Positions 1-51,808 of a stretch of 64,000 nt of DNA are shown here, one piece after another (the stretch's first letter is position 1; each line of letters begins with the position of its first letter). The translations under genes and the position numbers were made by a program. The notes below the pieces were generated by a model. The model was not told where the DNA came from. It made no database searches and was given only the letters and a program-made list of their open reading frames with translations. Source of the stretch: Gammaproteobacteria bacterium (GTDB lineage Bacteria > Pseudomonadota > Gammaproteobacteria > Eutrophobiales > Eutrophobiaceae); assembly GCA_965221695.1 (NCBI GenBank), contig OZ244905.1, positions 2,464,001-2,528,000 on the forward strand. The letters are read 5' to 3'.

Positions 1-2155
1 CGTCACCGCTTGCGGAGTAACCGTTAATCAGCGCCGCTTCGCGGAACGCCGAGCCCGCTGATGCGCCGGCGTCCACTGACTGGATGAACTCATCAATTTC
101 AGTGTCGGTCCAGGCATAACCGATGCGCGCATCCCAGAAATCCGTCAGTTGCGCGGAAAGATCGAGTTCGATCCCGTTGACAGTGGCTTTACCAACGTTT
201 TCCAGGATGGAAAAGGTGCGCGGTTGGCCGTTGACCACGGCGGCCCGGGTGGAGGTGAGTTGCATGTCCTGCCAGTCAATGTGATACACCGCAGCATTGG
301 CGACCACGCGGTTGTCCATCCACGCGGATTTCATCCCGAGCTCGAAGTTCCAGGCGGTTTCCTCATCAACCTCCCTATCAGCCTCCGGGAGCCCTGCCTG
401 GTTGTTCAGGCTGCCTGGTTTATTGCCCTTGCCGATATTGGCGTAGACCAGCAACCTGTCGGTTGCCTTGTATTTCACTGAAACCTTGGGCAGAAAGGCG
501 TTGAACGAACCTTTAACGCTTTCATCTGCGCCGGCCGGGGTGATATCGAAATCGTCTTCGTTATAGCGGAACTCAAGGCCGATGCCCAGTTTTTCCGTGA
601 AGTCAAACTCCATAAAACCGAATACCGACCAGCTCTCGATTTCCTCCCGACCATCGTCCCTGGCCGGCGCGCCTTCATAAAACGCGCTGGTTGAAATGAC
701 CGCGGGCGCAAAAGTCGGGTTGAAAGGAGCAAACAACCGGGTGCCATCGATATAAGTTGACGTAGTGGTGTCGAAAGAAGTGATCAGATCTTCTTTCATG
801 TCCGATTCGTAATAGTAGAATCCCAGCATATAGCGCAGCGCCTCGCCGGCGTCATAACTTAGGCGGATTTCCTGGGAAAAATCATCGAAATTATCATTTT
901 CGGCGGTCAGGAACCCGACCCTTGAGAAGATACGCGGCGCCGCGGAGAACGGTTGTACCGTGAACGGCAGACCAACGCCGACGACCGGCATCCTGGTATC
1001 GCCGCCACCGAAAGTCTGGTCCTGCGCGGCATTTATTTCCACATCGCTATAGCCTGTTACCGACGTGACCGTCATCGCCTCTGTCAGGTCAAACTCGGCC
1101 TTCAGTCCCAGCCGCAAGCTGTCCCGCTCGGTGCCCATATCATCGAAGAAGCTGGTTTCGATCATTGTGTCGCCGTTATTGGCCGCCAGCACATCATCCA
1201 CATCCATGCGCCCGCAATAATAGCCGCTACCGTTGTAACCGGCTGAATTCACCGTGTTCGCGCTGGCCTCGGGTGTGCCCGCGGGCGGGAGGGGTTGGGC
1301 AAGCGGTCCGCCCCGGGTGACCTGGTAGCAATTGTTCGCGCTGGATGACTGCACGGCAATCGCGTAGTGGTCGTCTTCGGTCTCCTCGTACATGATGTGG
1401 GCTTGCAGGTTTACCCTGTCATTGGGGCTAAGGGTCAGGACTGCGGTGATACTGCTTGTCTCTTCGCCGCCTACATCGTCGCTAATGGCCGGGGTGCCCA
1501 GCGGGTTGCCCGGAAAGTGGTTATCGTATTCGCCGTCGCGCTCGTAGTGACTCAGGGTAATCGCGAAACCCGCGGAGTCCCCCAATGGGCCGCTGCCGTG
1601 TATCTCAGCCCGAAAATGATCGCGCTCTCCATACTCTGCAGTGACCTCACCCTCAAACTCATCGCCGGGTTTTTTTAACACATAATTAACTGCGCCGGCC
1701 AGGGTGGAGCGGCCATACAATGCGCTTTGCGGGCCTTTCACCACTTCCACCCGCTCCAGGGCAGCCAAGGGAACGCTGGCGTTGCCTTCCTCAACGATGA
1801 TGCCGTCGATGAAAAGGCCGGCATTGGCGCGGCCAAGAATATTGGCCTGGCCTCTTATGACCGGACGAAAATCGTTCCTGCCGAAGGCCTGGGCGAAGTC
1901 GAAGCCCGGCGTGTAATCAGCAATATCCTGCAAGGAAGTGATACCCCGCTCTTCCAGCGCCGCTTCCGTAAACGCGTTCACCGTCAGGGGAATATCCTGC
2001 AGGTTTTCCTCGCGCTTTCTAGCTGTGACGATAATCTCTTCTATGGAGTCCTGGGCGAACGTAGTCAATGGAACTAATGAGGTCAACGTGAATACGATGG
2101 CCAGCGCCAGACCACCCGAACGGATCCAACAACGATGTAAATGATGCGTGAACAT
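1..2155 (-). CDS. TonB-dependent receptor (3' end runs off window)
   Basis: Absent from the ORF track because there is no stop in the window. Manual translation from ATG 2155 gives MFTHHLHRCWIRSGGLALAIVFTLTSLVPLTTFAQDSIEEIIVTARKREENLQDIP: signal peptide plus TonB-box/plug start. Later VEVVKGPQSALYGR. Confidence 0.92.
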   Translation of the reverse strand, partial: MFTHHLHRCWIRSGGLALAIVFTLTSLVPLTTFAQDSIEEIIVTARKREENLQDIPLTVNAFTEAALEERGITSLQDIADYTPGFDFAQAFGRNDFRPVIRGQANILGRANAGLFIDGIIVEEGNASVPLAALERVEVVKGPQSALYGRSTLAGAVNYVLKKPGDEFEGEVTAEYGERDHFRAEIHGSGPLGDSAGFAITLSHYERDGEYDNHFPGNPLGTPAISDDVGGEETSSITAVLTLSPNDRVNLQAHIMYEETEDDHYAIAVQSSSANNCYQVTRGGPLAQPLPPAGTPEASANTVNSAGYNGSGYYCGRMDVDDVLAANNGDTMIETSFFDDMGTERDSLRLGLKAEFDLTEAMTVTSVTGYSDVEINAAQDQTFGGGDTRMPVVGVGLPFTVQPFSAAPRIFSRVGFLTAENDNFDDFSQEIRLSYDAGEALRYMLGFYYYESDMKEDLITSFDTTTSTYIDGTRLFAPFNPTFAPAVISTSAFYEGAPARDDGREEIESWSVFGFMEFDFTEKLGIGLEFRYNEDDFDITPAGADESVKGSFNAFLPKVSVKYKATDRLLVYANIGKGNKPGSLNNQAGLPEADREVDEETAWNFELGMKSAWMDNRVVANAAVYHIDWQDMQLTSTRAAVVNGQPRTFSILENVGKATVNGIELDLSAQLTDFWDARIGYAWTDTEIDEFIQSVDAGASAGSAFREAALINGYSASGD

Positions 2156-2220
2156 AATAACTGCCCCCTGCCTGATCTCAAGGTGTATGAGAATGTTTGC
2201 CTGTTGTTGCAATTGTAAGA

Positions 2221-2416: not shown

Positions 2417-3838
2417 TCAAGACAGACGTTCAATCACTTCCTGTGCCCCTCGGTCGCCGGATTTGACGGCTGCTTCCATGCCGGATGCGGAAGGTTCGGT
2501 GTGGGCGCCGATGAAATGCAAGCGGCCCTCGGGCCGGCTGACGGCCTGGCTGAACTGCCCGACCCCACCCGCTAGGTAGTGGGAAAACGCGCCGTAGGCG
2601 AAAGGGTTTTTCCCCCAGGCGATGACCCGTTCCACTTCAAGTTGCGATTTGGTAGCGGGCCTGGCATGTGCCAGCAACGCGATGACATGTTGGCCGAGTT
2701 CGCTGTCCGGCATGCTCTCAAGGCGAGCAGCCGCTGCGCCCTGGATCCAGGCGCGTAAACGTATCACTTCGCCCTGTTCATTGGTCTGTGTGAAAATCCT
2801 GCCCATATCGGTATCGGTCCACATATTCGGGCTGAAGCCATCGGCAAGCCAGAACGGACTTTTCGGTTTCAGCAGCACATGGGTCACAGGGGTATATCCC
2901 ATACGCGTGATCGCCTGTTGCTTGGGACGGGATATGGGCGCCTGGATGTCCAGCCGCCGCAACACGCTGAACGGCAGGGCAAGCAGGCACAACCGGCAAG
3001 TGTAGCTGTCGGAATCGGCGGTGTGCAGCCGTACCCCTGTGCCGGTGGTAGAAATACCCGTTACCTGCTTGCCTGTCTCCACAAAAGCCCTGATTGAGGC
3101 ATGCATGGCATCGGGCAATCGTTGCGTGCCGCCGCTGACATCCTCCGGCGCGCCGGCGCCCTGCAGTATCGCGAGCTTGCGCAGCAGGTCCAGCGCCGAC
3201 AGCGTCTCGATGCTCTCGCCGTTCAGGTTGGCATCGACCAGTCTCAGCGCTTCTTCATCGGCGCCCATTTGTTGCAGGTAAGCTTGCAACGGGATGTCCA
3301 TCACGCTGTTTTCGGATTTCCACCAGTCCAACGGGTCGGCCAGGAAGCGGCCGTTGCGCAGCAGCCTGGGCAACAACCCGTATGGCGGCGTGTCTTTCAG
3401 GCTTTCCGGCAACAGGTTACCCGGGCTGTCACCCCATGTCTCAACGGCGCTGAGATGACCGTTCACCAGCAGCGTCATCCCCGGCGCGCCGGCGCTGATG
3501 GAGGTGGTCGTTATCTTCAACTCATCCAGCGCCCGGTTAAGCGCCTGGTAATTGGTCCCGATGCGGGCGCCGCCAGCTTCCGGCCGGCCGGGCAGGTCAT
3601 CGAGCGTATGGACCCGTCCGCCAATCCGTTGCGACCCCTCCAACAACAAAAAATCCACGCCTTGCTGTTGTAATAGTCGTCCCGCCTGTAATCCGGCAAG
3701 TCCGCCGCCGATAACAATAACGTCAAAATGTTTACGCGCAGCGAAAGCAGGTCGGCACAGACTGGAAAATGCAGCCGCCGCGCTCACCCGGAGCAGTTTG
3801 CGGCGGGTGATATCGGTTGAGGTTAGCAGGCGTTGCAT
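2417..3838 (-). CDS. Tat-exported flavin monoamine/amino-acid oxidase family protein
   Basis: TRRKLL Tat motif and PAFA cleavage site; VIVIGGGLAGL FAD motif; RIGGR; C-terminal GRLHFIGAHT..GMEAAVKSG. Start re-called at MQRLL. Confidence 0.88.
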   Translation of the reverse strand: MQRLLTSTDITRRKLLRVSAAAAFSSLCRPAFAARKHFDVIVIGGGLAGLQAGRLLQQQGVDFLLLEGSQRIGGRVHTLDDLPGRPEAGGARIGTNYQALNRALDELKITTTSISAGAPGMTLLVNGHLSAVETWGDSPGNLLPESLKDTPPYGLLPRLLRNGRFLADPLDWWKSENSVMDIPLQAYLQQMGADEEALRLVDANLNGESIETLSALDLLRKLAILQGAGAPEDVSGGTQRLPDAMHASIRAFVETGKQVTGISTTGTGVRLHTADSDSYTCRLCLLALPFSVLRRLDIQAPISRPKQQAITRMGYTPVTHVLLKPKSPFWLADGFSPNMWTDTDMGRIFTQTNEQGEVIRLRAWIQGAAAARLESMPDSELGQHVIALLAHARPATKSQLEVERVIAWGKNPFAYGAFSHYLAGGVGQFSQAVSRPEGRLHFIGAHTEPSASGMEAAVKSGDRGAQEVIERLS

Positions 3839-4015
3839 TTCAATGTGCCTTCGAGCGGAATCCGGGGCAGTCAATTTGTCATGTTTCAGTCTTCTTGCGC
3901 AGTGCAACCGCCAGCCCGCCAGTCTGACGCGGGTGAGACGCCCGCGCCCCCAGGGAAGCGGTGAAACACATAATATGCGTTTGTCATGTCTTCTTACCAG
4001 AGAAAACAGCCGTTG

Positions 4016-5146
4016 CTAATTGTTGATCCTCACCAGTTCGAATTCTGTTGTTGGAGGGTTCTCAATCTGCGGCTGATCCAGGATCTGCCAGCTTACGCCG
4101 TCCGGACCGGTAAACAGGAACGAGCGTTCCGAAAACTCGTTCTGCATGATGCTTGATGGTTGCAAACCCTGTTCGCGGGCAAGTTCATGCACATATTCCA
4201 GCGCCGGTGTATACAAGCTGTGCAGGGTTATGCCCAGTTCCCCGACACGCTGGTGACGGCTGCGGTCACGCACATGCTCAGGGTCCCGCGCACTGATGAA
4301 TTTCAGCTTGCCGCAGATATTGTTCGGTGAGACAAAGCCCCGGTACCAATGGCTTTCTCCGGGTTCCATAAGAAATACCTGGCCCGGCCCTTTTTGCCAG
4401 TCGCCGTCGATCACAGGTTCATTTTCCGCCAGAAAACCAAGCACGGACATATAGTATTCTGTCACCTCCTCCAGGTCTCCGTTGACGATAAAATCATGGT
4501 GGGTGAATTCGCTGGTCTGCAATGGCGCCGCCTCGTTGACAGTGCCGTAGCCGGGGATCGTGTAACCGTAACGTTGAAAGAATACGTGATTAAACAGCCG
4601 CCCGTACACGGCATTTTCGCGCACGCCGGCACGCCTGTCCTTGATGGATCGCTTGCCGGTATCCAGACCGTACAAGTCGTCGAAAACCGGCTCCGTGCTC
4701 AACCATGGCTCGCCGGCCTTGTTGCGTAAATCGAGAAACGTGTCATGCACGCGATGGATATCGCGGGTGCGCATCACCGCCATGCGCTGGCCCACGGTCT
4801 CCGGCGGCGCATAGCCGACTCCCGCGCCCAGAGGTTGTTCCCATTCCAGTATGCGCAGCAGCCCATGACTGTCAATCGCGCCATTCTGCATACGGATTGA
4901 ACGCAACCCGGAATTCACCCCGTACAATTTCTGCGCGCTTGCGCCGTCTATGCTGGCCTCATTTTTTACGCTGAAACCGAACTCGGTAAAGTACTCGACC
5001 AGTTGCTCGGCGTCATCGGTTCCGACCATGACCTCGTATACGCCGCTGATCCCTGTCTCAGGCAACTCTCTGTCAATGGCGAATGCCTGGGTTTGCAGCG
5101 CCGCCGGTAACAACGCCAGCAATACTGTAATAACAGTCTTGTTCAC
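4016..5146 (-). CDS. Secreted VOC/glyoxalase-superfamily protein
   Basis: Signal peptide ending AFA; VOC-like repeats (YFTEFGF, YYMSVLGF, FTGPDGVSWQIL). Confidence 0.65.
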   Translation of the reverse strand: MNKTVITVLLALLPAALQTQAFAIDRELPETGISGVYEVMVGTDDAEQLVEYFTEFGFSVKNEASIDGASAQKLYGVNSGLRSIRMQNGAIDSHGLLRILEWEQPLGAGVGYAPPETVGQRMAVMRTRDIHRVHDTFLDLRNKAGEPWLSTEPVFDDLYGLDTGKRSIKDRRAGVRENAVYGRLFNHVFFQRYGYTIPGYGTVNEAAPLQTSEFTHHDFIVNGDLEEVTEYYMSVLGFLAENEPVIDGDWQKGPGQVFLMEPGESHWYRGFVSPNNICGKLKFISARDPEHVRDRSRHQRVGELGITLHSLYTPALEYVHELAREQGLQPSSIMQNEFSERSFLFTGPDGVSWQILDQPQIENPPTTEFELVRINN

Positions 5147-5192: not shown

Positions 5193-6539
5193 TCAATCTC
5201 CTGCGCGCAGCATATCCGCGCAGGCGCCGGCATACAGTCGCAGGGTTACCGGAACCAGCAACAGCACCGGTACGCCGTAGATGAACGGCAGCAGCGCCAT
5301 GGAATATTTCAAGCCCAGTTCGCCAAAGACCTGGTCGTTGAGGATCCCTATGGTGGTCGGCCCGAGCAGCAATCCGGCCAGGCTGATGGCCATGTAATAA
5401 AACGCAACCACCTGGGCGCGGATCTCGCCGGGGGTCATGTTCAGCAATGCAGTCACGCCGGTTGCGGTAGTCATGGCCAGGCCCACTGCATTGATGCCGA
5501 ACATCAGCATGGCCATGCCGCCTGTCGGCATTAACGGCGCGATAACCCCGGTAATCACCATGATGAATGCGCCGATGATGGCAATGCGTAACGCGGCGTC
5601 GGTCACCCCGGCGGCATACCAGCGGTCACAAAGCCAGCCGGCCAGGTTCACTGTTGCCGGGCCCACGGCCAGCAGCACGATGCCGTTTACCAGTGCGAAC
5701 TGTGACGCTTCCCAACCCCAGGTGCGCATGAACAGGGCCGCGCTCCACCCCTGGCTGTAAGCGACGGTAGTCATCAGACAGAAGATGGTCAGGAAGCTGG
5801 CAAAGGCCTTCCATCTTTGCAGCACGAACTTCAAGGTATCGATTAATGACGCATTGCCCAGGCCCGCGGTCATGCCCCGTTCCTGCCGCTTTGGCTCCCG
5901 CAATACAAAAAACAGCAATGCCAGCGCAAACCCCGGCAATCCCACGGCAATGAATGCAAATTGCCAGGGCGCAACCGTTCCAATCCACGGCAGGTTGGTT
6001 TCAGGGGAGGACTTGGCCCAGACCAGTACCGTCGCGCTGAACAGTGACGCAATGGCTGCGCCGATGGATATGGCCATGCTGTAAAATGCGATAGGCTTGG
6101 CCCGGCGCTCCTTGGGAAAGCTGTCGGAAATCATGGAGATGGCGCACGGGCTCAGGGTCGCCTCGCCGATGCCTACGCTCATGCGGGCTATGAACATCTG
6201 GAAGAAATTCTTTACCAGGCCGGAGGCGACGGTCGCCGCGGACCAGACCGTGATGCCCACCGCCACGATCCAGCCGCGCCGGTAGCGGTCCGCGAGCCAG
6301 CCCAGGGGCAGTCCCATGGTGGCATAGAATATCGCAAACGCGGGTCCCAGCAACAGGCCAAGTTGCGTGTCCGAGAAGCCGAGATCAGCTTTAATCGGCT
6401 CCACCAGCAGCCCCAGCATGAACCGGTCTATGAAGGAACAAACATAGGCAATAGTCAGCAGTATTACCATATACCAGGCATAACGGGCGCTGGGATAGGC
6501 GCTATGGGTTTGTTGTTCTGATTTTGTGGAATTATTCAT
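5193..6539 (-). CDS. MFS transporter (spinster-like)
   Basis: ~12 TM segments; SFIDR, GWLADRYRR motif A, ARMSVGIGEA. Confidence 0.92.
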   Translation of the reverse strand: MNNSTKSEQQTHSAYPSARYAWYMVILLTIAYVCSFIDRFMLGLLVEPIKADLGFSDTQLGLLLGPAFAIFYATMGLPLGWLADRYRRGWIVAVGITVWSAATVASGLVKNFFQMFIARMSVGIGEATLSPCAISMISDSFPKERRAKPIAFYSMAISIGAAIASLFSATVLVWAKSSPETNLPWIGTVAPWQFAFIAVGLPGFALALLFFVLREPKRQERGMTAGLGNASLIDTLKFVLQRWKAFASFLTIFCLMTTVAYSQGWSAALFMRTWGWEASQFALVNGIVLLAVGPATVNLAGWLCDRWYAAGVTDAALRIAIIGAFIMVITGVIAPLMPTGGMAMLMFGINAVGLAMTTATGVTALLNMTPGEIRAQVVAFYYMAISLAGLLLGPTTIGILNDQVFGELGLKYSMALLPFIYGVPVLLLVPVTLRLYAGACADMLRAGD

Positions 6540-7515
6540 CGATTCGTGTCAGTCCGGCCTGGAACCAGCGCACATTCAGACCCACTCGATGTGAATCCGG
6601 ATCAGTCCAGGAATAAGAGAGTGTGTAGCCGGTACTGTCTTCGATGATTCCGATTTTCAGAACCGGTATTTGGGTTTGCTGGTAGGTCAGGGTCTCCAAC
6701 GACAAGGTATAGCCGGTATTATTGCCGCTTTCATCCAGCAGGGGTATTTTCTGGCCTTCGTTATGCATCCTTCCGATCTTCGTGAAGACCCAGTCTGACA
6801 GGTCGGCGCCGGCATCGACCTTGTGTTTTTTTACCGCCATCCAGCCCCGGTAGAATTTCACTTTCCTGTTTTTATGCGGCACATCATGACCGAATATGCG
6901 GTTGCCGCCGGCATCATGGGCCTGGTCCTGAATCCATATCCACGAGTCGGTCAGGCGCAAGGTATCGTTGATATATATTCTTTTGCCCGTTTGTCTTGAG
7001 ATAATCGAACAAGCGTCCTGTTTCATGTAGCCGTCATAATATTCGCCATTCCATTTCCAGAACACCTCGCAACCGGGCAGGGTCTTCAATTCATCCAGGT
7101 CCAAGTCTTCAAGTATCGCTGGTTGCTGGTCGGCCAGCCGGTACTTCAGTTCGTCGGCGAATGAATAGATGGTCAACAGAATGGCGTTTTCCTGATCATC
7201 AATGGAAAACCGGTAGAGCCGCTGCCGGTAGACCTTGTCGTAGTCGCCGTCAATGTACTGCTTGACAAAAAATACGTTGTCGCCCAGCGCGGGAACACGG
7301 GCCGGCTTGAAGATGTGATGGATATGCTCGAGGATATCCTGCTCATTGTCTTGTTTCTGTTGCCAGACCTGTTCGTAGTTATCGAATTCCCCCTCGAACC
7401 AGTCAAGAAATCGGGCAAAGTCTGCTTCGGTTGCGGCGCTGCATAAGGGTGCGCTTAACCAGGCAAACGTGAGCGCGAATACCAGAAATACAGATCGGCT
7501 CACCGGCTTAACCAC
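6532..7515 (-). CDS. Secreted CpcT/CpeT chromophore-lyase-like protein with extra C-terminal domain
   Basis: Signal peptide; WFEGEFDNYEQ, HIHHIF, YRQRLYRF and LPGCEVFW resemble CpcT/CpeT motifs (GxFxNxxQ, YRxR, LPGC). Confidence 0.72.
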   Translation of the reverse strand: MVKPVSRSVFLVFALTFAWLSAPLCSAATEADFARFLDWFEGEFDNYEQVWQQKQDNEQDILEHIHHIFKPARVPALGDNVFFVKQYIDGDYDKVYRQRLYRFSIDDQENAILLTIYSFADELKYRLADQQPAILEDLDLDELKTLPGCEVFWKWNGEYYDGYMKQDACSIISRQTGKRIYINDTLRLTDSWIWIQDQAHDAGGNRIFGHDVPHKNRKVKFYRGWMAVKKHKVDAGADLSDWVFTKIGRMHNEGQKIPLLDESGNNTGYTLSLETLTYQQTQIPVLKIGIIEDSTGYTLSYSWTDPDSHRVGLNVRWFQAGLTRIDE

Positions 7516-7988
7516 TGATTCGCCTCAATAAAATAACCATTCGGGTCAAAAAAGCTCATGCACAGCAGCTTGAATACGCCACCGTCGGGCTTGGGATATT
7601 CGGACACATGGGGTTCGCTTTTTATGTGCACCCCGGGAACATCCAGCAACTCGCGATGCGCTTGCTCAGCGTCAGCAACACTCATCACGAATACGGTATC
7701 ACCGACACCCAGTCTTTTTGGATACTCGCCCCTTTCCGGCAATGGCGGGTCCAGGTATTGCAGTATGCCGAGCATGCCGATGTAGGGATCGTTTGCCTTG
7801 AGGATGACCAGGCGCGCCTTTGAACCCGGCTCGCCGGCCGGCAAACCGAGACCGGAAATAACCAGTTCATTATCGTAGTAGGTTTCCAGGCCAAGAATAT
7901 CACGATAGATTTTCAGCGGCGTTTCAATCTCGTTCACCAGCATCGTGGCGCGGCGAAAATCGGTGGGTACTTTACTCATCGCAGGCAT
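7500..7988 (-). CDS. VOC family protein
   Basis: IYRDILGLE and FFDPNGYFIEAN glyoxalase motifs. Confidence 0.85.
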   Translation of the reverse strand: MPAMSKVPTDFRRATMLVNEIETPLKIYRDILGLETYYDNELVISGLGLPAGEPGSKARLVILKANDPYIGMLGILQYLDPPLPERGEYPKRLGVGDTVFVMSVADAEQAHRELLDVPGVHIKSEPHVSEYPKPDGGVFKLLCMSFFDPNGYFIEANQWLSR

Positions 7989-8012: not shown

Positions 8013-9008
8013 TCACTCAGCGACCTTAACGATGGCCTTGCCGAAGTTTTCTCCCCGCATCAGGCGGCAAAACAGCGCGGGCGCGTGCGCAAGTCCTTGC
8101 ACGCAGTCTTCCCTGTAGCAGAGCTCTCCCTGTTTCAGCCACTGGCTGACCTGCCGCTCGAACTCGGGGCGCAGGTCTTCATGATCATAGACAACCAGGC
8201 CGCGCACAGTGGCCCTGGCCTTGATGATGAAGCCCGGATTGGGTCCGGGAGGCAACTCGTCCGTGTTGTACTGCGCGATCAACCCGCACAGGATAACCCT
8301 GGCGCCCAACGCCAGTTGTTCCATACAGGCTTGCAACAGGTCGCCACCCACGTTATCGAAATAGACATCAATACCGTCGGGACAGGCGCGCCTGAGACTG
8401 TCTCTGAGCGTTTCCGTTTTGTAATTGATACAGTGATCGAAGCCGGCTTGCGCTACCGTCCAGCGGCATTTTTCCTCGGAACCGGCAATACCGACCACGC
8501 GGCAACCCTGGCGCTTGGCGATCTGTCCGACCATTGACCCGACCGGGCCGGACGCGGCTGAGACAACCACCGTGTCTTGTGCTCTCAAATCGGCGAGCCG
8601 GGTCATCCCGGCATAGGCAGTCAGGCCCGGCATCCCCAGGATGCCGAGCAGGGTGGATAGTGGTCCGAGTTCCGGGTTTACCGGCCGCGCTGCGTCTTCC
8701 CCGACAACCGGGTGGCTTTGCCAGCCGCTGTGAGCAGCGACGATATCGCCCTGTTTGAACCGGTCCGAGTTCGATTCCAGAACCCTGCTGATGGCTTCTC
8801 CGGCCATCAGGTCACCCACGTTGATCGCGCCGGAAATATGCCGGCCGCTGATCTTTCCGCGCAGGTACGGGTCCAATGACAGGCATAAAGTCTCACATAA
8901 CAACTCCTGCGCATCGGGCTTACGTAACGCTGAGTTGACCAGTTCGAAATCCTGCTCTTTGGGCAATCCCTCGGTTCTTTGTTTCAGTAAAACCCGTGTA
9001 TTATTCAT
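8013..9008 (-). CDS. NADP-dependent oxidoreductase (PTGR/CurA-type alkene reductase)
   Basis: LSLDPYLRG, LGMPGLTAYAG, VSAASGPVGS, GIDVYFDNVGG, GENFGK. Confidence 0.92.
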   Translation of the reverse strand: MNNTRVLLKQRTEGLPKEQDFELVNSALRKPDAQELLCETLCLSLDPYLRGKISGRHISGAINVGDLMAGEAISRVLESNSDRFKQGDIVAAHSGWQSHPVVGEDAARPVNPELGPLSTLLGILGMPGLTAYAGMTRLADLRAQDTVVVSAASGPVGSMVGQIAKRQGCRVVGIAGSEEKCRWTVAQAGFDHCINYKTETLRDSLRRACPDGIDVYFDNVGGDLLQACMEQLALGARVILCGLIAQYNTDELPPGPNPGFIIKARATVRGLVVYDHEDLRPEFERQVSQWLKQGELCYREDCVQGLAHAPALFCRLMRGENFGKAIVKVAE

Positions 9009-9157: not shown

Positions 9158-10765
9158 TTGTTTCGAATTTCTTGCACTGTGCCACAGACTCCAGCAGATA
9201 AATTTACAGTGGTTGACGATATAGCCGCAATAGTCGGGGCCGAATTTGTTCTGACCGATGAACAGAGTTGCGCGTTTTACTCCCAGGATATCTATACCAA
9301 GGCCCTGCCGGCTCTGGCAGTGGTGCGGCCAGGTTCCGGCGCGCAGGTCGCCGAAGTTGTCGCTGCCGCGACACAACAGGGCCACGCAGTAGTAACACGC
9401 GGCGGCGGTATGTCGTACACCAGCGGCTACGTACCGGCGGAACCGGATACTATTCTGCTCGATATGAGCCGGCTCAACCGGGTGGTAGAGTGTAATACCG
9501 AAGACATGTACGTGACCGTGGAAACGGGTTGCACCTGGAAGGATTTGCGCGAGGCATTGAGCGGAACCGGTTGCCGCACGCCATACTGGGGCACGCTCTC
9601 CGGCATCAAGGCCAGCGTCGGCGGCAGCCTGTCCCAGAACAGCATATTCTGGGGTTCGGGTCGATATGGCAGCGCGGTTGACTCGGCGCTGAGCCTGGAG
9701 GTGGTCCTCGCGGATGGGACCATACTGGATACCGGATCGAACGCCCACAGCAACGGCGCGCCTTTTTTCAGACACTACGGTCCTGATCTCACCGGCCTGT
9801 TTTGCTGTGACACCGGCGCGTTGGGAATTAAAACCAAGGCCACACTGCAACTGGTCCCTGATTTGGCCGCCAATCGCTTTGCTTCTTTTGCCTTTGATGA
9901 TTACCGCGACATGGCCGGGGCAATGAGCGCGATTTCAAGGGCTGACCTTGCAATGGAATGTTTCGGATTCGATCCTTTTCTGCAACGCCAGCGCTTGCAA
10001 CGCGAGAGCCTGTTACGGGATGTAAAATCGCTTGCCGGCGTCATGAAGGCAAGTGGCGGCGTGGTTGCGGCGCTGAAAGACGGCGCACAGACGGCGCTTG
10101 CCGGAAGAGGTTTCATGGATGATGTCGGGTACTCTCTGCATGTTATGGTAGAGGAAAGCGGCGAATCCCTGGCCGATGACCGGCTTGACCGGGTCCGGCA
10201 GATTTGTTCGGATAGCCAGGGTCGGGAGATTGAAAACAGCATCCCTAAAATACTCAGGGCCAATCCGTTTACTCCCTTGAATAATGTTGTCGGCCCCCAT
10301 GGCGAACGCTGGGCGCCGGTGCATGCGCTGGTCCCCCATTCCAAAGCTGTTGCCGTGATTGATGGTGTCGAAAAAATATTCTCGGAACAACGTGAACGCA
10401 TGGACCGGGAGGGTATCGGCGTCGGCTTTTTATTCGCAACGGTATCGACGCATTGCTTCGTGGTTGAACCTGTTTTCTTCTGGCCGGATGCGATGACTGA
10501 AATACACCGGGATACCGTGGAACCGGGCGTGTTGAAAAAACTTCCGGGATTTGAGGAAAACCCGGCAGCGCGTCAGGCGGTCGCGCAGATCAGGGAGAAA
10601 CTGCTCGAATTTTTCTGTGAAACCGGCGCCGCGCACCTGCAAGTCGGCAAGGCCTACCCGTACAAGCAGGGATTAAAACCGGCAAGCTGGGATCTGGTCC
10701 GGCAGGTGAAGCGCGTGCTGGACCCCGATAACCGAATTAACCCCGGCGCGCTGGGTTTGTCCTGA
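9158..10765 (+). CDS. FAD-binding oxidoreductase (VAO/PCMH, D-lactate dehydrogenase-like)
   Basis: VVRP..RGGGMSY..G FAD motif; LEVVLADG; C-terminal KRVLDPDNRINPG. True start may be GTG at 9209. Confidence 0.88.
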   Translation: MFRISCTVPQTPADKFTVVDDIAAIVGAEFVLTDEQSCAFYSQDIYTKALPALAVVRPGSGAQVAEVVAAATQQGHAVVTRGGGMSYTSGYVPAEPDTILLDMSRLNRVVECNTEDMYVTVETGCTWKDLREALSGTGCRTPYWGTLSGIKASVGGSLSQNSIFWGSGRYGSAVDSALSLEVVLADGTILDTGSNAHSNGAPFFRHYGPDLTGLFCCDTGALGIKTKATLQLVPDLAANRFASFAFDDYRDMAGAMSAISRADLAMECFGFDPFLQRQRLQRESLLRDVKSLAGVMKASGGVVAALKDGAQTALAGRGFMDDVGYSLHVMVEESGESLADDRLDRVRQICSDSQGREIENSIPKILRANPFTPLNNVVGPHGERWAPVHALVPHSKAVAVIDGVEKIFSEQRERMDREGIGVGFLFATVSTHCFVVEPVFFWPDAMTEIHRDTVEPGVLKKLPGFEENPAARQAVAQIREKLLEFFCETGAAHLQVGKAYPYKQGLKPASWDLVRQVKRVLDPDNRINPGALGLS

Positions 10766-33974: not shown

Positions 33975-33975
33975 A

Positions 33976-39856: not shown

Positions 39857-39993
39857 AATACAGGTATTGGCTTGATTCGTTTTGCTGGCACTTTGTCAAA
39901 GTACATTGATGTAACAATAAAATCAATCGTTAGCCCGCACCAATTTCTTTTATAATCGGGTTTCTTCATTCATGCACAGGCGAGGGCAAAACC

Positions 39994-41172: not shown

Positions 41173-41177
41173 AACCG

Positions 41178-41546: not shown

Positions 41547-43600
41547 GTTATCGACTGGGTGTTGATGTAGGCGGCACTTTCACCGACCTGTTGCTGATAG
41601 ATGAGCAGAGCGGCGCGACATTTACCGCCAAGGTGCCGTCCACGCCGGAAGACTCCTCGATCGGGGCGCTGAACGGCATTGCGCGGATTTGTGACACACA
41701 CAATATCGACGCCGGTAAAATCTCCCGGGTAATGCACGGCACCACCGTCGCGACCAATGCCGTTCTCACCGGGCGCGGCGCCAGGGTGGGCCTGGTCACG
41801 ACCAAGGGTTTCCGCCAGGTTCTGCAGGTGGCGCGCTCATTTTGTCCGGGTGGTCTGGGCGGCTGGGTCAGTTACGTGAAGAAGCCGCTGCTGGCCCCGC
41901 TGGAGTTGACCATAGAAGCGGATGAGCGGATCGATGCCCAAGGCAATATCATAAGGGAACTGGACGAGGCGGCGCTGAGACGGGACCTGCAAACATTGCA
42001 CGCCAGGGGAGAGGTGGAGTCGCTGACCATCTGCCTGATTAACGCCTACATCAACGATGAGAACGAGCGCCGCGCAGAGGCCGTCGCCGGCGAGGTTTTC
42101 TCTGATATTCCAATCTCCATATCCAGCAAGGTCGTGCCCGAGATGCAGGAGTACGAGCGCGCTGAAACCACGGTCGTTAACGCCTATGTCCGACCGGAGG
42201 TCTCAAACTATATCAATAACCTGCAGGCCGCGCTCGCCGAGCGTATGGGCAGCGACGTTATCCTGTCCATTCTGCGTTCTGACGGCGGACTGGCCTCGGG
42301 CCGGGCGGCGACGCAATCGCCGGTGAACATGCTGATGTCCGGACCTGCCGGCGGCGTGACTGGCGCGCTGTATTTTTGCAGCCGCGCAGGCTACGACAAC
42401 ATCCTGACGTTTGATATGGGCGGCACATCGACGGATGTGGCGCTGATTCAGAATGGCAAAGCGCTGATCAGGCGGGAAACCATCGTCGGCGATGTGCGCG
42501 TCAGGGCGCCGTCGGTCGATGTGCGCACCGTGGGCGCCGGCGGCGGTTCCATCGCTTTTGTCCCGGAGCTGACCCGCGCGCTGCGTGTCGGGCCGCAATC
42601 CGCCGGGGCTGTTCCCGGTCCGGCCGCATACATGAAGGGTGGCGAGGAACCCACGGTGTGTGACGCCAACGTGGTGTTGGGGTATCTACCCGCGGATGCG
42701 CAACTGGGCGGCGCGATGGCGATAAATAAATCCGCGGCGGAGGCTGCGGTGCAAAAATTGGCCGACGCGATGGGGATCGATCTGATGGAGGCTGCCGAAG
42801 GTATCATCAAAATCGTCAATGAATCCATGTTCGGCGCACTGCGGCTGGTGTCCGTGGAACAGGGCTATGACCCCAGGGATTTCTCTCTGGTCGGTTTCGG
42901 CGGCGCCGGACCCCTGCACGCCAACGCCCTGGGAATCCTGACAGGCTCCTGGCCGGTGATCATCCCACCCGGCCCCGGTGTGCTGTGCGCTTACGGCGAC
43001 GCGACCACCCGAGTCCAGGATGAAGCGGCGCGCACCTATATCGCGATGGCGGAGGAAACCGGCGCGGACAACCTGTTACAGGACCTGGAAGCCTTGCGCG
43101 AACGCGCGTCCGAATCTCTGGTTGCAGACGGGGTCGTGCAGCAGGACCTGGAGGCGCTTTACCAGGTGGACCTGCGTTACACCGGACAGGCGTACCAGAT
43201 CACACTGGATTTTACCGCCGAGGAACTGGCTGAAAGCGGCATTCTCAGCCTGACCAGGCGCTTTGATGCCGAACACAAGCGCTTGTTCACATTCGACCTG
43301 GGCGAAGGCCATGAAATCGTCATGATACGCGCCATCGTCAGGGTCAAACAGAAAGACCTGGCCGAACTGGATACCAGCAGCACACAGACCCGGCTGGAAG
43401 ACTGCAGGATTCGCGACAGCCGCTATTATTACGAGGGCGCATGGCATGAGGCCGCTATCTATGCACGGGAAAAACTGCATGAAGGACTGGTGGTGCCGGG
43501 CCCGGCAATCATCGCCGAAATGGATTCCACGACCCTGATACTGCCCGGCTTCCATGCGGCGGTGGACGCTTTGGGCAACCTCATTATCCAGCCCGAATAA
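41543..43600 (+). CDS. hyuA: Hydantoinase A/5-oxoprolinase ATP-binding subunit
   Basis: GVDVGGTFTD, HGTTVATN, SGPAGG, DMGGTSTD, GAGGGS. Confidence 0.93.
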   Translation: MSYRLGVDVGGTFTDLLLIDEQSGATFTAKVPSTPEDSSIGALNGIARICDTHNIDAGKISRVMHGTTVATNAVLTGRGARVGLVTTKGFRQVLQVARSFCPGGLGGWVSYVKKPLLAPLELTIEADERIDAQGNIIRELDEAALRRDLQTLHARGEVESLTICLINAYINDENERRAEAVAGEVFSDIPISISSKVVPEMQEYERAETTVVNAYVRPEVSNYINNLQAALAERMGSDVILSILRSDGGLASGRAATQSPVNMLMSGPAGGVTGALYFCSRAGYDNILTFDMGGTSTDVALIQNGKALIRRETIVGDVRVRAPSVDVRTVGAGGGSIAFVPELTRALRVGPQSAGAVPGPAAYMKGGEEPTVCDANVVLGYLPADAQLGGAMAINKSAAEAAVQKLADAMGIDLMEAAEGIIKIVNESMFGALRLVSVEQGYDPRDFSLVGFGGAGPLHANALGILTGSWPVIIPPGPGVLCAYGDATTRVQDEAARTYIAMAEETGADNLLQDLEALRERASESLVADGVVQQDLEALYQVDLRYTGQAYQITLDFTAEELAESGILSLTRRFDAEHKRLFTFDLGEGHEIVMIRAIVRVKQKDLAELDTSSTQTRLEDCRIRDSRYYYEGAWHEAAIYAREKLHEGLVVPGPAIIAEMDSTTLILPGFHAAVDALGNLIIQPE

Positions 43601-43618
43601 CCGAACAGGACAACAGCG

Positions 43619-45469
43619 ATGGCCGGCAAAATTATCGAGCAGAACACGAGTCCGTTGGAACGCGTCCCGGTTGATACCGTAACGGTGGACATCATTGAGA
43701 ATGCGCTGCGCAACGTGCGCGTGGAGATGGACGCGGTACTGTTCCGCACTGCGATGTCGCCCGGCATCCGCGAGCAGGGCGACTGTTTCCCGATGGTGGC
43801 GAACCGGGATGGCAAGATGGTGGTCGGCCAGTTCGGCTCATTCATCCACGGGCTGATGGAAGCCTACGACGGGACCATCGAAGAGGGCGACATTATCCTT
43901 ACCAATGACCCGTACCGATGCGGGGCGGCGGTGTCCCACTTGCCGGATTGGATAGTACTGACGCCCATCTTCAAGGATCACAGACACATCGCCTGGTCGG
44001 CGATGTTCGGGCATATGTCGGATAACGGCGGGATGACGCCGGGAAGTATCCCGGTGCAGGCAACGACGATTTTTCAGGAAGGCATTCGCATCCCCCCGAC
44101 AAAGCTGTATCGCAAAGGCGAGTTGCAGTCCGATATGCTGGAACTGATATTGCACAATGTGCGCACGCCGCAATGGAACCGCTTCGACCTGAATGCCCTG
44201 GTTGCTGCCTGCAATACCGCGGCGCGGCGTTGCGTTGAGCTGGCGGAACGCTTCGGCGATGACGTGTTCTACTCCACCATGGAAATGATGCTGGAGCGTA
44301 ACCATGCGGCCATGAAGCAGATCATCGAAATGATCGTGCCGGAAGAACCGCGCAGTTTTGAGGACTACGTCTGTGATGACGGGGTGGGCGGCGGGCCTTA
44401 CAAGATCAAATGCACGCTGTGGCGGGAAGGCTCCCGGGCCATTTTCGATTTTGCCGGCACCGACCGGCAAGCGGACAGCTCAATCAATTTTTTCCTCAGC
44501 GAGGACATGTTCAGGATGTTTTTCGGCGCGTTCACCATCAACCTGTTCGATCCGCAGATCCTGTTCAATGACGGGTTTTACGACCTGGTTGACGTGCGTA
44601 TCCCCCAGGGTTCGCTGTTGAAGCCGAACTACCCTGCGGCGCTGTCCGGCCGCACCCATGCCCTGGGGCGTATTTTTGACGTAATGGGCGGCCTGCTCGG
44701 ACAGGGCGCGCCGGAGGCCTTGAACGCAGCCGGCTTTTCCGACAGCCCGCACCTGTTCTATTCCGGCTATGACGAGAACGGCGAGTGGTTCCAGTTGTTC
44801 CAGATCGGCTTCGGCGGCATCCCCGGACGGCCGGCCGGTGACGGTCCGGACGGCCATTCCCTGTGGCCAGGTTTCACCAACGTGCCGAACGAGTTTATCG
44901 AGGCCTATTTTCCACTGCGCATCGAACAATATGAACCGATAGCCGATTCCGGCGGCGCCGGCCTGCATCGCGGCGGCAACGGCCTGAGCGTGGCCTACCG
45001 GTTCCTCTGCGACGGCGCCATCGCCATCCACGATGAACGCTGGCTGACCTACCCTTGGGGCGTGAACGGCGGCGAGCCGGGGCAGCGTTCCAGCAAGCGC
45101 CTGGCGCGCGCCGATGGTTCCGAAGAGTGGTTGCCGTCCAAGTGCGAAAATGTCGAGGTAAAAGTGGGCGATGTGCTGTATTTCAATACCTGGGGCGGCG
45201 GAGGTTGGGGCGACCCCTACCAGCGCGATGCTGAGATCGTGCGGCTTGATGTCGCCCGCGGCCTGGTCAGCGCCGCCGGCGCAAGACGCTACGGTGTCGC
45301 GCTGAACGATGACGGCAGTGTCGACGAGAAGGCTACTCAAGCACTGCGCGCACGCTTGAGCGCTGACCGGGGCAAGCCGGCCATGTTCAATTTCGGCGGA
45401 ACCATTGAGGAGATCAAGGCCAGGGCACTGGAAGAAACCCACCTGCCGCCGCCACAAGCGCCAGGTTAG
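43619..45469 (+). CDS. hyuB: Hydantoinase B/5-oxoprolinase subunit
   Basis: RTAMSPGIRE, TNDPY..SHLPD, HMSDNGG..PGS, SGGAG.HRGG, GGGGWGDP. Confidence 0.93.
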   Translation: MAGKIIEQNTSPLERVPVDTVTVDIIENALRNVRVEMDAVLFRTAMSPGIREQGDCFPMVANRDGKMVVGQFGSFIHGLMEAYDGTIEEGDIILTNDPYRCGAAVSHLPDWIVLTPIFKDHRHIAWSAMFGHMSDNGGMTPGSIPVQATTIFQEGIRIPPTKLYRKGELQSDMLELILHNVRTPQWNRFDLNALVAACNTAARRCVELAERFGDDVFYSTMEMMLERNHAAMKQIIEMIVPEEPRSFEDYVCDDGVGGGPYKIKCTLWREGSRAIFDFAGTDRQADSSINFFLSEDMFRMFFGAFTINLFDPQILFNDGFYDLVDVRIPQGSLLKPNYPAALSGRTHALGRIFDVMGGLLGQGAPEALNAAGFSDSPHLFYSGYDENGEWFQLFQIGFGGIPGRPAGDGPDGHSLWPGFTNVPNEFIEAYFPLRIEQYEPIADSGGAGLHRGGNGLSVAYRFLCDGAIAIHDERWLTYPWGVNGGEPGQRSSKRLARADGSEEWLPSKCENVEVKVGDVLYFNTWGGGGWGDPYQRDAEIVRLDVARGLVSAAGARRYGVALNDDGSVDEKATQALRARLSADRGKPAMFNFGGTIEEIKARALEETHLPPPQAPG

Positions 45470-45503: not shown

Positions 45504-45597
45504 CCCATTCCCGCAACTGCGGGAATCCAGTGGACAACAAAACTCCTTATATGAAAGCTTTGCTGACTGGATTCCCGTTTCCATTGCGGGAATGGTA
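45504..45597. repeat. Family A REP-like palindrome core
   Basis: CCATTCCCG..GCGGGAATCCAG...CTGGATTCCCG..GCGGGAATGG. Confidence 0.82.
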
Positions 45598-45600
45598 GTA

Positions 45601-46866
45601 GTGAATACGTCTACAAGATCGATGCGGAGAACGGCGCTGGCATTGCTGTTCCTGGTGTCATTCTTCAATTACATGGACCGTTACATGCTGGCCGTGCTGC
45701 TGCCGGCGATCAAGGCCGACCTGGGTTTGAGCGATACGCAGATCGGCTTCATCACCGGCCTCGCGTTTACCCTGTTCTATGTCACCATGGGCATTCCCAT
45801 TGCGCGCCTGGCCGACCGCTATAACCGAAAAAATATCGTTGCGATTGCTCTGTCGGTATGGAGCGCAATGACCGCGCTGTGCGGCCTGGCGCAGAATTTC
45901 GCGCAACTGGCCATTGCCAGGATCATGGTCGGTGTGGGCGAAGCGGGCGCCAGCCCTCCGTCACATTCCCTGATCGCCGACCTGTTTCCCGTAGAACAAC
46001 GCGCCAGGGCGATTTCCATTTTCTCACTGGGCGCGCCGGTCGGGATCTTGATCGGGTTTATGCTGGGAGGCTGGATCACCCAGCTCTACAGTTGGCGCGC
46101 GGCGCTGTTTACCGTCGGCATACCCGGCATCCTGGTCGCGCTGGTAGTGTATCGCAAATTGCACGAACCGGCGCGCGGCGCGGCTGACGGCCTGACGCGC
46201 GCGCCGGCTACACCTCCTTTCTGGTTTTCATTAAAGACGCTGATGGCCAGCCCGACCTTTCGCCACCTGTCGGTCGGCACCGGTTTGTACACGGTGGTCT
46301 GGCTGGGTGTGGTGCAATGGCTGCCGTCTTTTTTCACCCGCTCGTTCGAGTTGGAGATCGGCGTGGTGGGCGCCTGGCTGGCGATCATCCTGAGCGTCTC
46401 CCAGATCATCGGCATGTTGCTGGGCGGCTGGCTGGCGGACCGGCTGGGCGCCACCGATTTGCGCTGGTATGTCTGGGTGCCTTCGCTGGCGATACTGGTA
46501 TCCACACCCATGTTTGCGCTGACCTTCCTGACGCAAAACCCGACGATTGCCTACCTGTCCTTGTTCCTGCCGTTCATGATTGGGGTGATGCAAGGCCCGC
46601 CCAGCTTCGCCGTGGTCCAGGGCCTGGCCGATATAAGAATGCGCGCGATGGCTGCCGCGTTGCTGTTGTTGATCACCAACCTGATAGGCGGCGGCATCGG
46701 CCCCCAGGTGGTGGGTATCATCAGTGATTACCTGGCTGCCGAGCACCACCAGCATTCACTGCGCTATGCGCTGCTGGTGGTCAGCCTGATATTCGGCCTG
46801 TGGTCGTCCCTGCACTATTTCCTGGCAGGCAAGACGATAAGACAGGAGTTCAGGAAGCCAAAATAA
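45601..46866 (+). CDS. MFS transporter (spinster-like)
   Basis: NYMDR, ARLADRYNR, GVGEAG..PPSHSLIAD. Start is GTG 45601 or ATG 45622. Confidence 0.92.
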   Translation: MNTSTRSMRRTALALLFLVSFFNYMDRYMLAVLLPAIKADLGLSDTQIGFITGLAFTLFYVTMGIPIARLADRYNRKNIVAIALSVWSAMTALCGLAQNFAQLAIARIMVGVGEAGASPPSHSLIADLFPVEQRARAISIFSLGAPVGILIGFMLGGWITQLYSWRAALFTVGIPGILVALVVYRKLHEPARGAADGLTRAPATPPFWFSLKTLMASPTFRHLSVGTGLYTVVWLGVVQWLPSFFTRSFELEIGVVGAWLAIILSVSQIIGMLLGGWLADRLGATDLRWYVWVPSLAILVSTPMFALTFLTQNPTIAYLSLFLPFMIGVMQGPPSFAVVQGLADIRMRAMAAALLLLITNLIGGGIGPQVVGIISDYLAAEHHQHSLRYALLVVSLIFGLWSSLHYFLAGKTIRQEFRKPK

Positions 46867-46966: not shown

Positions 46967-49111
46967 CTATGCCAGGTCTCTGGGTATGCTGTCTTTCCAC
47001 TCCTGCGAAAAAATGACACTGTCTTTTTCATGCGCCACCAAATCGGTTGTCACATGGAAATGTGTCTGATCCGATGTCAATTCAAAATTTGATCGTGTCT
47101 TGATATCCCAGTCGCCCCTCTTGAGCTCAATGGAGAAATACCCGCTCCAGGCAGAACTGTTGGGGTCGGATTGTTCAATAGTCGACATCCACTCGGATCG
47201 TAATCTCATTTCCGTGCCTATCGCATTAATCAGCAAACCTCCCGAATCGCTGAGGGTACGGACCTGATACCGCCCGTTCTCATCGGGGCCGACTAATTCC
47301 TCTTTATGATCGCCAGCGGCGGTTGGCGTAATGACACTTCGATCATACGGGGCCGGATCGGTAAATTCCAGGTTCTCCAGGTCTTCGGACGCAGCCGGCC
47401 GCTCCGGCAAAACCAGCTTACTCACGCCGGTATGGACCGTGAGTTCCACGGCCTCCGGTGAAGGCCATACCTGGGGCCAGTAACTTTCCGATATCGAAAC
47501 CCTGATCCGATGCCCCTTCTTGAAACGATAGGCGATGACATTCAGCGGTACGTCGACCTGGTAAACATCGCCCGGCAACAACGCTTCGGGTTCCGCATGT
47601 CCATTTCTGTGGGTCAGGTTAAGCAAGCCGGCAGTCACATACCAGGATGAGCCGTCGGGCCGGATTTCATTAAGCCGGACGGCGACCTTCGCAACCGGCT
47701 TATCAACGGAAAACGCCAGTTTCACCACCGGATGGCCACAGATTTCGATGTCCTCAGTGAGCGCGTCAGAGTCGAAGGTCAACGATTTGTTGTCATCATC
47801 CGACTGATCCCGGGGTAATTCCGTTTCCATGTCAAACGGAAGAAAGGCTTGATTGCTGACCCCGACGGTTTGATCCGGCGCCAGGGATATCGCTGTTTCG
47901 GCAGCCGGCATTTCAGCCAGGCCCGCCGCGTTCAAAAAGTAAGTTTTGTCTCTGATCCGGTCCGAGGGCCAGGTCCACTCCCCTACCCAGCGTCCCGGGA
48001 CGGGGTCCGGATACACTTGTCCCGGCACCTTTTCCTGCATATAAACCTGCAGCATGGGTTCATCCATGATGCCTGTATCAATGCCTTTGAGCCAGTGGTC
48101 CCACCAGCGCACTTCCTCATGGAAGAAGCCGATTGCGGGGCCGGGCGCGGCTTCATCGGGAACGTTGTGTCCATGGGGCCCCATCAACCCCTTCCTGGGG
48201 ACACTGAGGTTCTCAAGCAAGCGTGGAACAGTATTTGTGTAGACATCGACAAAGCCGCCGACCGCATAAACCGGACACTTGATCCGGCTGTAGTCCTCAT
48301 TGACAGAACCATGCTGCCAGTACCTGTCGCGGCGCTGGTGGCGCATCCAGTTGTGGGTCACCGGTCCCACGGCCTCCAGGCGTTTCAGCCACTCCTTGCG
48401 CCAACCAGCGCCAAACAACTCCGGGTCAGGGGGCAGGGACAGGACATTCATGAACAATTGTCCCCATTCAAAATTCGCCCGGGCCAGGGAACCGCCGATA
48501 TAGTGGGCATCATCAGTATAACGGTCGTCGGTACTGCCATGCGTGACGATTGCCTTGAGTTCCGGTGGATTAAGGGCTGCAATCTGCAAAGAATTGAATC
48601 CACCCCAGGAAATGCCGCGCATCCCGACCGCCCCCGTGCACCATGGCTGTTGCGCCAACCATTTCAATATCTCGAGACCATCCAGTTGTTCCTGTTTCTC
48701 ATACTCATCCTTGATGATGCCATCAGATTCTCCGGTGCCCCTGATATCCACCCTGACACCCGCGTAGCCGCGCGCCGCGGCATAGACATGCGCAGGTTCT
48801 GACTTGTTGCGGTCCAGGTCGCGCTTGCGGTAGGGAAGATATTCCAACACCGCCGGCACCGGGGATGCTTCGGCATTCGTGGGCAACCAGATCCTGGCCG
48901 CCAGCCGTCTGCCGTCCGGCAACGGGATCCAGGTATGCTCAATGTTGCGTATGGCCAGCTCTTCCCTGAGTCTGGCGGCGCGTTTTTTGTCTGACGGTGA
49001 AGATTGGCCGCACGCGCCCAGCACAGTAAGCGAAGCCAGGGCCAGCGCCGATTTTAACAGCGCCCGCCTTGAATGAAGATGTTTGCTTATATCTGAACGG
49101 TAGTCTGCCAT
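46967..49111 (-). CDS. CocE/NonD (peptidase S15) hydrolase with Tat lipoprotein signal
   Basis: SRRALLK..LGAC; LEYLPYRK, RGTGESDG, GISWGG nucleophile. Confidence 0.9.
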   Translation of the reverse strand: MADYRSDISKHLHSRRALLKSALALASLTVLGACGQSSPSDKKRAARLREELAIRNIEHTWIPLPDGRRLAARIWLPTNAEASPVPAVLEYLPYRKRDLDRNKSEPAHVYAAARGYAGVRVDIRGTGESDGIIKDEYEKQEQLDGLEILKWLAQQPWCTGAVGMRGISWGGFNSLQIAALNPPELKAIVTHGSTDDRYTDDAHYIGGSLARANFEWGQLFMNVLSLPPDPELFGAGWRKEWLKRLEAVGPVTHNWMRHQRRDRYWQHGSVNEDYSRIKCPVYAVGGFVDVYTNTVPRLLENLSVPRKGLMGPHGHNVPDEAAPGPAIGFFHEEVRWWDHWLKGIDTGIMDEPMLQVYMQEKVPGQVYPDPVPGRWVGEWTWPSDRIRDKTYFLNAAGLAEMPAAETAISLAPDQTVGVSNQAFLPFDMETELPRDQSDDDNKSLTFDSDALTEDIEICGHPVVKLAFSVDKPVAKVAVRLNEIRPDGSSWYVTAGLLNLTHRNGHAEPEALLPGDVYQVDVPLNVIAYRFKKGHRIRVSISESYWPQVWPSPEAVELTVHTGVSKLVLPERPAASEDLENLEFTDPAPYDRSVITPTAAGDHKEELVGPDENGRYQVRTLSDSGGLLINAIGTEMRLRSEWMSTIEQSDPNSSAWSGYFSIELKRGDWDIKTRSNFELTSDQTHFHVTTDLVAHEKDSVIFSQEWKDSIPRDLA

Positions 49112-49525: not shown

Positions 49526-51808
49526 ATGTTTAATTTGAAAAATGGCATTTCTCACGTCGCATTGGCCGGCGCTTCGCTGGCTTCGATAATTACCTTTTCT
49601 GTATTTCCATTACCGGGTTATGCAGAGATCGAAGAGGTAGTAGTGACCGCAAACAGGCGCGGCGCGGCAACGCTCCAGGACATTCCGTTGTCGGTTTCTG
49701 CCGTGTCTGCGGAAGATATTGTAAGCTCCGGCGTAGGCAGTATTGTTGATTTTGTGAAGAGTGTGCCGTCAGTCAATATCATTCAGCGGGGACCAGGGCA
49801 GACTCAGACTACGATTCGCGGCATTGCCAATGGATACTTTCAGCCCACTGAAACCGCAGACCGACCGCTAACCGCAATTTATCTGGATGATGTGCCTATT
49901 TCCATTCAGGGCGCAACGCCGGATTTAAAAGTTGTTGATTTTGAACGAGTAGAGATTCTGCGCGGTCCTCAGGGGACTCTGTACGGCGCAGGCTCAATGG
50001 CAGGAACCATACGTTACATAACGAAAAAGCCGGATTCCGAACAATTCAGCGGTCAAATTCAGGGTGTCTTGTCTGAAGTTGCGGATTCGGACGACATGGG
50101 TTGGAATGTAAGCGGGTCAGTCAATATTCCAATCACTGACTCAGTCGCGTTCCTGGGATCCGTGTATCAAGGCGAAGATGCCGGATTTATCGACAATGTG
50201 GGAACCGGAAAGGATGACGCGAACACTGTCGAAACTACCCAGGTGCGCGGCGCACTAAGATTTACTGGTATTGAAAGTGTAACGCTGGATGCGAGTATCA
50301 TTTATTCGAACGTAGAGGCTGACGGGAACACCAATGCTTATTTTGGCACAGGTACTGATGACAGGATAATCGAGACGATTACTCCCGAAGGCTATGAAGA
50401 TGATTTTCTGCTGGTAAATATCACGGCGGAGATCGATATTGCCGGGATGACACTGGTGTCATCCACAGGCTATATCGATCGCGAAATGGAGGTTCGTCCT
50501 ACGGGGAACTTTGAAAACCTTATCGGTAACAATTTGCCATTGCGGCAAAACGATTCATTACTTACTAATGAAATTGAAACCTTTACACAGGAAATTCGTT
50601 TGCTGTCTCCCCAGGAAAATCAGTTAACCTGGCAATTGGGCGCATTCTATGAAGATACTGAACGTCTTTATGACCAGGTGAATATCGCTCCAGGATTAGA
50701 CGCGGTAACCGAATTGGCCTCGGTCTTTTTCTTCGGCGCCGACTCGCCTGATACCATATTCTTTGGACAACATGTCATTGATGAACAGCAACTGGCTGTT
50801 TTTGTTGACGCCAATTTCAAGTTTAACGACCAATGGAACCTGTCTGCCGGCACTCGTTATTTTGATTTTGAGCAGGATTTCGAGCTCTCCTTCAGTGGTC
50901 TGGCGGGTTCGTCGTTTCTCCCCAACCCAAACGCACCACCGGTGTTTTTACCCTTAACAAATGCCGGGAATCCCAAGGAAGATGGCTTTACCTACCGGGT
51001 GAATCTTTCTTATGCGCCCAATGACGATCTACTCCTGTTTGCTGAAGTCTCTGAAGGCTTCAGGTATGGAGCAGTGAACGAACCTGTGGCATCGAATTTC
51101 TGTAATGGACTGACTGGCCCCGTCTCATTTGGATCCGATGAACTCACCAACTATGCCCTGGGCGCCAAAAGTCAATTGGCTGACCAGAGAGTTACGCTTA
51201 ATGCAACGGTATTTTTTATTGACTGGACTGATGTGCAGTCACAGTTTGCACTGGATTGCGGCTATTACTACCGCGTTAATGAAGGCACCGTCCACAGCGC
51301 AGGTGTCGAGTTGGAAACTTCGTTCCAGGTAACTGAAAATTGGATGGTAGGACTGAATTCCAGTTATACCAATGCCGAAGCCCAGGATGATGTCTTTTCC
51401 CCGGGCGCATTTGGTCCTCCGGGGGTGGTGGCGCTGGACGGGCAAAAAGCGCCATTGTTTCCTGAGTGGATTGCCTCGTTTCACACGGAATACACGGTAC
51501 CTCTCGCCATTGGTGGAGGTGGAGATTTGACCTTCAGAGGGGATATTCAGTATCGCGATGAATACGGTAATATATTTGCCACGGGTAACAGACTGTATAG
51601 AGTGACCCCGAGTCAAACACTGCTGAACGCTTCCGTGAATTATGTAACGGCGCGCTGGGAAGTTGGCCTGTTTGGCGCCAACTTAACAGATAGCAACAAC
51701 GTAGCGATTATCATTGGCAATCCCGGAGGCGCATTTCCAGGGTATGAAGACAGCCGTTTCCACGGCAGCCCGAGGACTATTGGTATACGAGGGAGGGTAA
51801 ATTTTTAA
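49526..51808 (+). CDS. TonB-dependent receptor
   Basis: IEEVVVTANRR, VEILRGPQGTLYG, C-terminal PRTIG....NF. Confidence 0.95.
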   Translation: MFNLKNGISHVALAGASLASIITFSVFPLPGYAEIEEVVVTANRRGAATLQDIPLSVSAVSAEDIVSSGVGSIVDFVKSVPSVNIIQRGPGQTQTTIRGIANGYFQPTETADRPLTAIYLDDVPISIQGATPDLKVVDFERVEILRGPQGTLYGAGSMAGTIRYITKKPDSEQFSGQIQGVLSEVADSDDMGWNVSGSVNIPITDSVAFLGSVYQGEDAGFIDNVGTGKDDANTVETTQVRGALRFTGIESVTLDASIIYSNVEADGNTNAYFGTGTDDRIIETITPEGYEDDFLLVNITAEIDIAGMTLVSSTGYIDREMEVRPTGNFENLIGNNLPLRQNDSLLTNEIETFTQEIRLLSPQENQLTWQLGAFYEDTERLYDQVNIAPGLDAVTELASVFFFGADSPDTIFFGQHVIDEQQLAVFVDANFKFNDQWNLSAGTRYFDFEQDFELSFSGLAGSSFLPNPNAPPVFLPLTNAGNPKEDGFTYRVNLSYAPNDDLLLFAEVSEGFRYGAVNEPVASNFCNGLTGPVSFGSDELTNYALGAKSQLADQRVTLNATVFFIDWTDVQSQFALDCGYYYRVNEGTVHSAGVELETSFQVTENWMVGLNSSYTNAEAQDDVFSPGAFGPPGVVALDGQKAPLFPEWIASFHTEYTVPLAIGGGGDLTFRGDIQYRDEYGNIFATGNRLYRVTPSQTLLNASVNYVTARWEVGLFGANLTDSNNVAIIIGNPGGAFPGYEDSRFHGSPRTIGIRGRVNF

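Follow-up and report, generated by a model that had tools for sequence, protein, structure and literature searches.

A large gene cluster of a non-photosynthetic marine bacterium, which is conserved in several bacterial phyla, features an exported relative of the cyanobacterial pigment-attaching enzyme CpcT and may provide a route for breaking down pigment-derived compounds. No published description of this cluster was found.

Extent and conservation of the gene cluster

The window, i.e., the whole stretch of 64,000 nucleotides that was analysed, harbours the gene of the CpcT-like protein at 6532-7515, homologues of which occur in 305 genome stretches. A distant-locus set comprised 78 loci around such homologues from Gammaproteobacteria, Bacteroidota and Acidobacteriota, with a limit of ±10 kb. 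Genes that in the window are about 27 kb distant from the CpcT-like gene reside at most 10 kb from it in these loci, namely those of the CoA-transferase (48/78), LeuC (39/78, with LeuD in 33/78), the alkene reductase (39/78) and the aldehyde dehydrogenase (ALDH, 35/78). Moreover, the genes of the far half of the window, encoding LeuCD, the CoA-transferase, ALDH, the CN-hydrolase, HyuAB, the Amidohydro_2 protein and the methyltransferase, adjoin the gene of the CpcT-like protein in bacteria of other orders and other phyla. The two halves are functionally linked and constitute one system, as the preliminary description had assumed. Synteny extends to 33 of the 42 genes (g01-g42) in genome G022, at 61-92% amino-acid identity, and to 37 of the 42 in genome G008. 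Taken together with the cross-phylum co-localisation of core genes with the CpcT-like gene, this grouping exceeds chance.

The boundaries initially given for the cluster (1-51,808) proved wrong at both ends. On the left, it extends about 5 kb beyond the window start with a DUF1838 gene, an MFS-like gene and a further TonB-dependent receptor (TBDR; genome positions 2458759-2463499). On the right, the block syntenic in G022 ends with the MFS transporter at 45592-46866 (+; Pfam). The adjacent S15 CocE/NonD-type peptidase (46967-49111, −) and second TBDR (49526-51808, +), both assigned by Pfam, are syntenic in G008 only, absent from the G022 region and found in 0/78 distant loci; these two genes are not conserved and are candidate members only, and the proposed chromopeptide step of the peptidase is not conserved either. 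Within the cluster, the stretch of 14.8-19.7 kb displays a low GC content (0.47-0.50) and contains a toxin-antitoxin pair, an FGE-sulfatase and two unknown ORFs in addition to a conserved YCII-family gene (15710-16054, +; PF03795), which is present in G008, G022 and 12/78 loci. In G008 and G022, the syntenic region lacks the toxin, the FGE gene and both unknown ORFs, and in the window this stretch is mostly a strain-specific insert.

The exported CpcT-like protein

The protein of 327 residues encoded at 6532-7515 (−) is composed of a signal peptide, a CpcT/CpeT-fold barrel (residues ~27-221) and a second, C-terminal beta-barrel domain (~219-327). Pfam CpeT/CpcT (PF06206) matches residues 36-210 with 110 bits at a cut-off of 21. 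The structure model (pLDDT 94.1) aligns in its N-terminal domain with 185 residues of 4o4o (Z 22.1, rmsd 2.5), followed by CRL (Z 17.6) and phage CpeT (Z 16.5). Together with the matches by Foldseek (E 6.8e-12) and by profile (E 1.3e-16), this bears out the T-type bilin-lyase fold that had been proposed. The C-terminal domain lacks any Pfam match and shows structural matches of just Z ~5; this barrel is new and undescribed. A signal-like N-terminus is shared by 45/45 aligned family members, and the protein is accordingly predicted to be exported. Within the genus, nine of the 12 genomes with an orthologue are devoid of the CpcT domain, at least five of which retain the gene spacing of the cluster.

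Genes around the CpcT-like gene

The first TBDR (2-2212, −; Pfam Plug and TonB_dep_Rec_b-barrel) is cut by the window start, and its full frame of 862 aa reaches genome position 2463624. It is syntenic in G008 and G022, and in 16/78 loci a receptor of its type is found next to the CpcT-like gene. A flavin amine oxidase (2417-3907, −; PF01593, E 2.8e-50), whose type occurs in 15/78 loci and is mostly paired with the TBDR, carries a Tat-like leader (RRKLL) spotted by eye and is probably periplasmic; among PDB entries, it is closest to monoamine and L-amino-acid oxidases (E about 1e-25). The start of an MFS transporter gene (5193-6539, −; PF07690; 7/78 loci) and the stop of the CpcT-like gene overlap, and locus L004 has its MFS gene in the same position.

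The listed gene families were recovered by Pfam, except that the count of four VOC proteins did not hold and the DUF3598 match was marginal. Just one VOC protein is significant in Pfam, an exported member of 376 aa with a signal-like N-terminus (4016-5146, −; PF00903, E 3e-5), which lacks relatives among PDB sequences (E<=0.01), is found in 4/78 loci and was undetected in the G022 region. A small VOC-like protein of 162 aa (7500-7988, −; weak full-length PF00903 match, E 0.16), the gene of which extends into the start of the CpcT-like gene, occurs in 17/78 loci; P0300 contains a fused VOC domain with a weak match to this family (E 1e-4 to the present protein) and a better one to the separate small-VOC family c44 (E down to 1.5e-21). 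The VOC-like protein of 306 aa at 21468-22388 (−; weak Glyoxalase_6 match, E 0.0012) shows a weak relationship (E 1.8e-5) to c19, a family of exported two-domain VOC proteins, and is a paralogue (35%) of the protein at 32406-33407 (+), which probably begins close to residue 42 of its ORF.

There follows the NADPH-dependent alkene (enone) reductase of the MDR CurA/PTGR1 type (8013-9008, −; PF16884 and PF00107), which scores 378.6 bits with the NCBIfam curcumin-reductase model, under the cut-off of 440. In the 39/78 loci that have it, it is mostly an immediate neighbour of the CpcT-like gene. An FAD-linked oxidase/dehydrogenase (9158-10765, +; PF01565, FAD_binding_4; 8/78 loci) has D-lactate and D-2-hydroxyglutarate dehydrogenases, glycolate oxidase and vanillyl-alcohol oxidases as PDB relatives. 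In the part of the loci with available gene orders, an alpha/beta hydrolase comes after it wherever both appear. Here this is a tandem alpha/beta-hydrolase of 550 aa with two Abhydrolase stretches (11021-12673, +), which has a paralogue of 562 aa (28-29% identity), likewise a tandem alpha/beta-hydrolase, at 19796-21484 (−).

The cytoplasmic 10-stranded barrel encoded at 12812-13315 (+) only marginally matches DUF3598_N (PF12204; 22.9 bits at a cut-off of 22), a match that a six-frame genome search missed. Its model (pLDDT 93.9) resembles BFA1 (TMq 0.71), the DUF3598 structure 2o62, CpeS (4tq2, TMq 0.67) and nitrobindin. Of the CpcS-like barrel suggested earlier, the calycin fold is borne out; the protein is a generic calycin barrel, with the fold common to DUF3598, CpcS/CpeS and nitrobindin. 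It has 924 homologues, and genes of this type occur in 10/78 loci. The nearby DUF4437 bicupin (13717-14697, +; PF14499/PF12973) is found in 14/78 loci (median 73% identity), including 7/7 loci with Amidohydro_2.

Predicted amide, imide and branched-acid enzymes

In the middle of the cluster, an NAD(P)-dependent ALDH (22382-23818, −; PF00171, E 1e-105) exceeds no NCBIfam cut-off. A conserved protein of 237 aa with unassigned function (24230-24943, +; weak DUF3108 match alone) is found in 10/78 loci (median 58% identity). The adjacent gene of a DUF1330 protein of 95 aa (24956-25243, +; PF07045, E 1e-27), absent from the preliminary list, occurs in 12/78 loci; in each of the four for which the gene order as printed includes it (L023, L026, L028, L035), the CN-hydrolase comes immediately after it. 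This carbon-nitrogen hydrolase of the amidase type (25247-26281, +; PF00795; 20/78 loci) is under every NCBIfam cut-off. An acyl-CoA ligase (26822-28270, −; PF00501 and PF13193) is syntenic in the genus and found in just 3/78 distant loci (±10 kb). The neighbouring Amidohydro_2 hydrolase or decarboxylase (28287-29150, −; PF04909; 7/78 loci, about 72% identity) has the uncharacterised Bordetella protein 3irs as best PDB match. The TRAP transporter genes DctP (29223-30269, −; Pfam), DctQ (30691-31206, +) and DctM (31127-32461, +) are syntenic in G008 and G022. In the distant loci (±10 kb), DctP and DctQ accompany the CpcT-like gene in 0/78 cases and DctM in 1/78. A CMD/AhpD-family gene (carboxymuconolactone decarboxylase; 33402-33995, −; PF02627) is present in G022, undetected in G008 and found in 0/78 distant loci (±10 kb).

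The family III CoA-transferase (34133-35314, +; PF02515, E 1e-111) is predicted to act on a dicarboxylate: its best NCBIfam model is succinate-glutarate CoA-transferase, with a score under the cut-off, and its PDB relatives include succinate-hydroxymethylglutarate CoA-transferase (E 1e-51). LeuD (35342-35971, −) and LeuC (35971-37380, −), identified by Pfam, are paralogues, as had been supposed, of a second LeuCD at genome 313567-315620 (47-49% identity). Subfamily models exceed their NCBIfam cut-offs, and the leuC equivalog scores 543 at a cut-off of 560; the pair is a predicted aconitase-family hydratase for a 2-substituted maleate. The cyclic amidohydrolase (37598-39061, +; PF01979) of the allantoinase/dihydropyrimidinase/hydantoinase superfamily, with 245 bits against an allantoinase cut-off of 358, has orthologues in 15/22 other genus genomes.

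Other loci feature neighbours that are not in the window, namely PuuE-type imidase-like proteins, isochorismatase-type amidases, an HMG-CoA-lyase-like or CitE lyase, and an ACAD/MaoC methylsuccinate-type module, which strengthens the proposed logic of imide/amide opening towards alkyl-maleate. Two kinds of cyclic amidohydrolase are mutually exclusive among the 78 loci (PuuE-like 28, 37598 type 4, both 0), and so are the branched-dicarboxylate modules (LeuCD with HMG-CoA-lyase-like 39, ACAD, MaoC and CitE 15, both 0).

A GntR/HutC-family regulator (GntR and UTRA; 39089-39856, −; homologue in 11/78 loci) had been overlooked; the plus-strand ORF 39149-39955 was rejected as a gene in its favour. 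Next to it, a SAM-dependent methyltransferase of 392 aa and its small partner of 136 aa (41136-41546), together spanning 39994-41546 (+), occur in 10/78 and 9/78 loci, respectively, in some beside the DUF3598-like gene (the methyltransferase and u136 pair in L070 and L082). HyuA (41543-43600, +) and HyuB (43619-45469, +) are of the ATP-dependent hydantoinase/oxoprolinase/caprolactamase type, with caprolactamase models far under their cut-offs. They are found in 7/78 and 6/78 loci (72-78% identity), and the genome holds at least seven further HyuA and HyuB paralogues.

Candidate substrate and proposed pathway

Phycobiliprotein, reaction-centre, bilin-reductase and heme-oxygenase families were not found in the whole 3.54-Mb genome (96.85% complete), which extends to genome scale the earlier remark that the window holds no phycobiliprotein or photosynthesis gene. 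No enzyme family known for the catabolism of heme, bilins or chlorophyll is present either. Degradation of another N-heterocycle by the cluster is a strong rival explanation. The putative pathway would comprise uptake, binding in the periplasm, imide/lactam opening, formation of alkyl-maleate/succinate and CoA-dependent cleavage, a logic for which tetrapyrrole-derived pyrroles fit best as candidate substrate. Since an exported CpcT relative is paired with enzymes predicted to open N-rings and to burn the released branched acids, the cluster may constitute an undescribed route for the breakdown of tetrapyrrole compounds.

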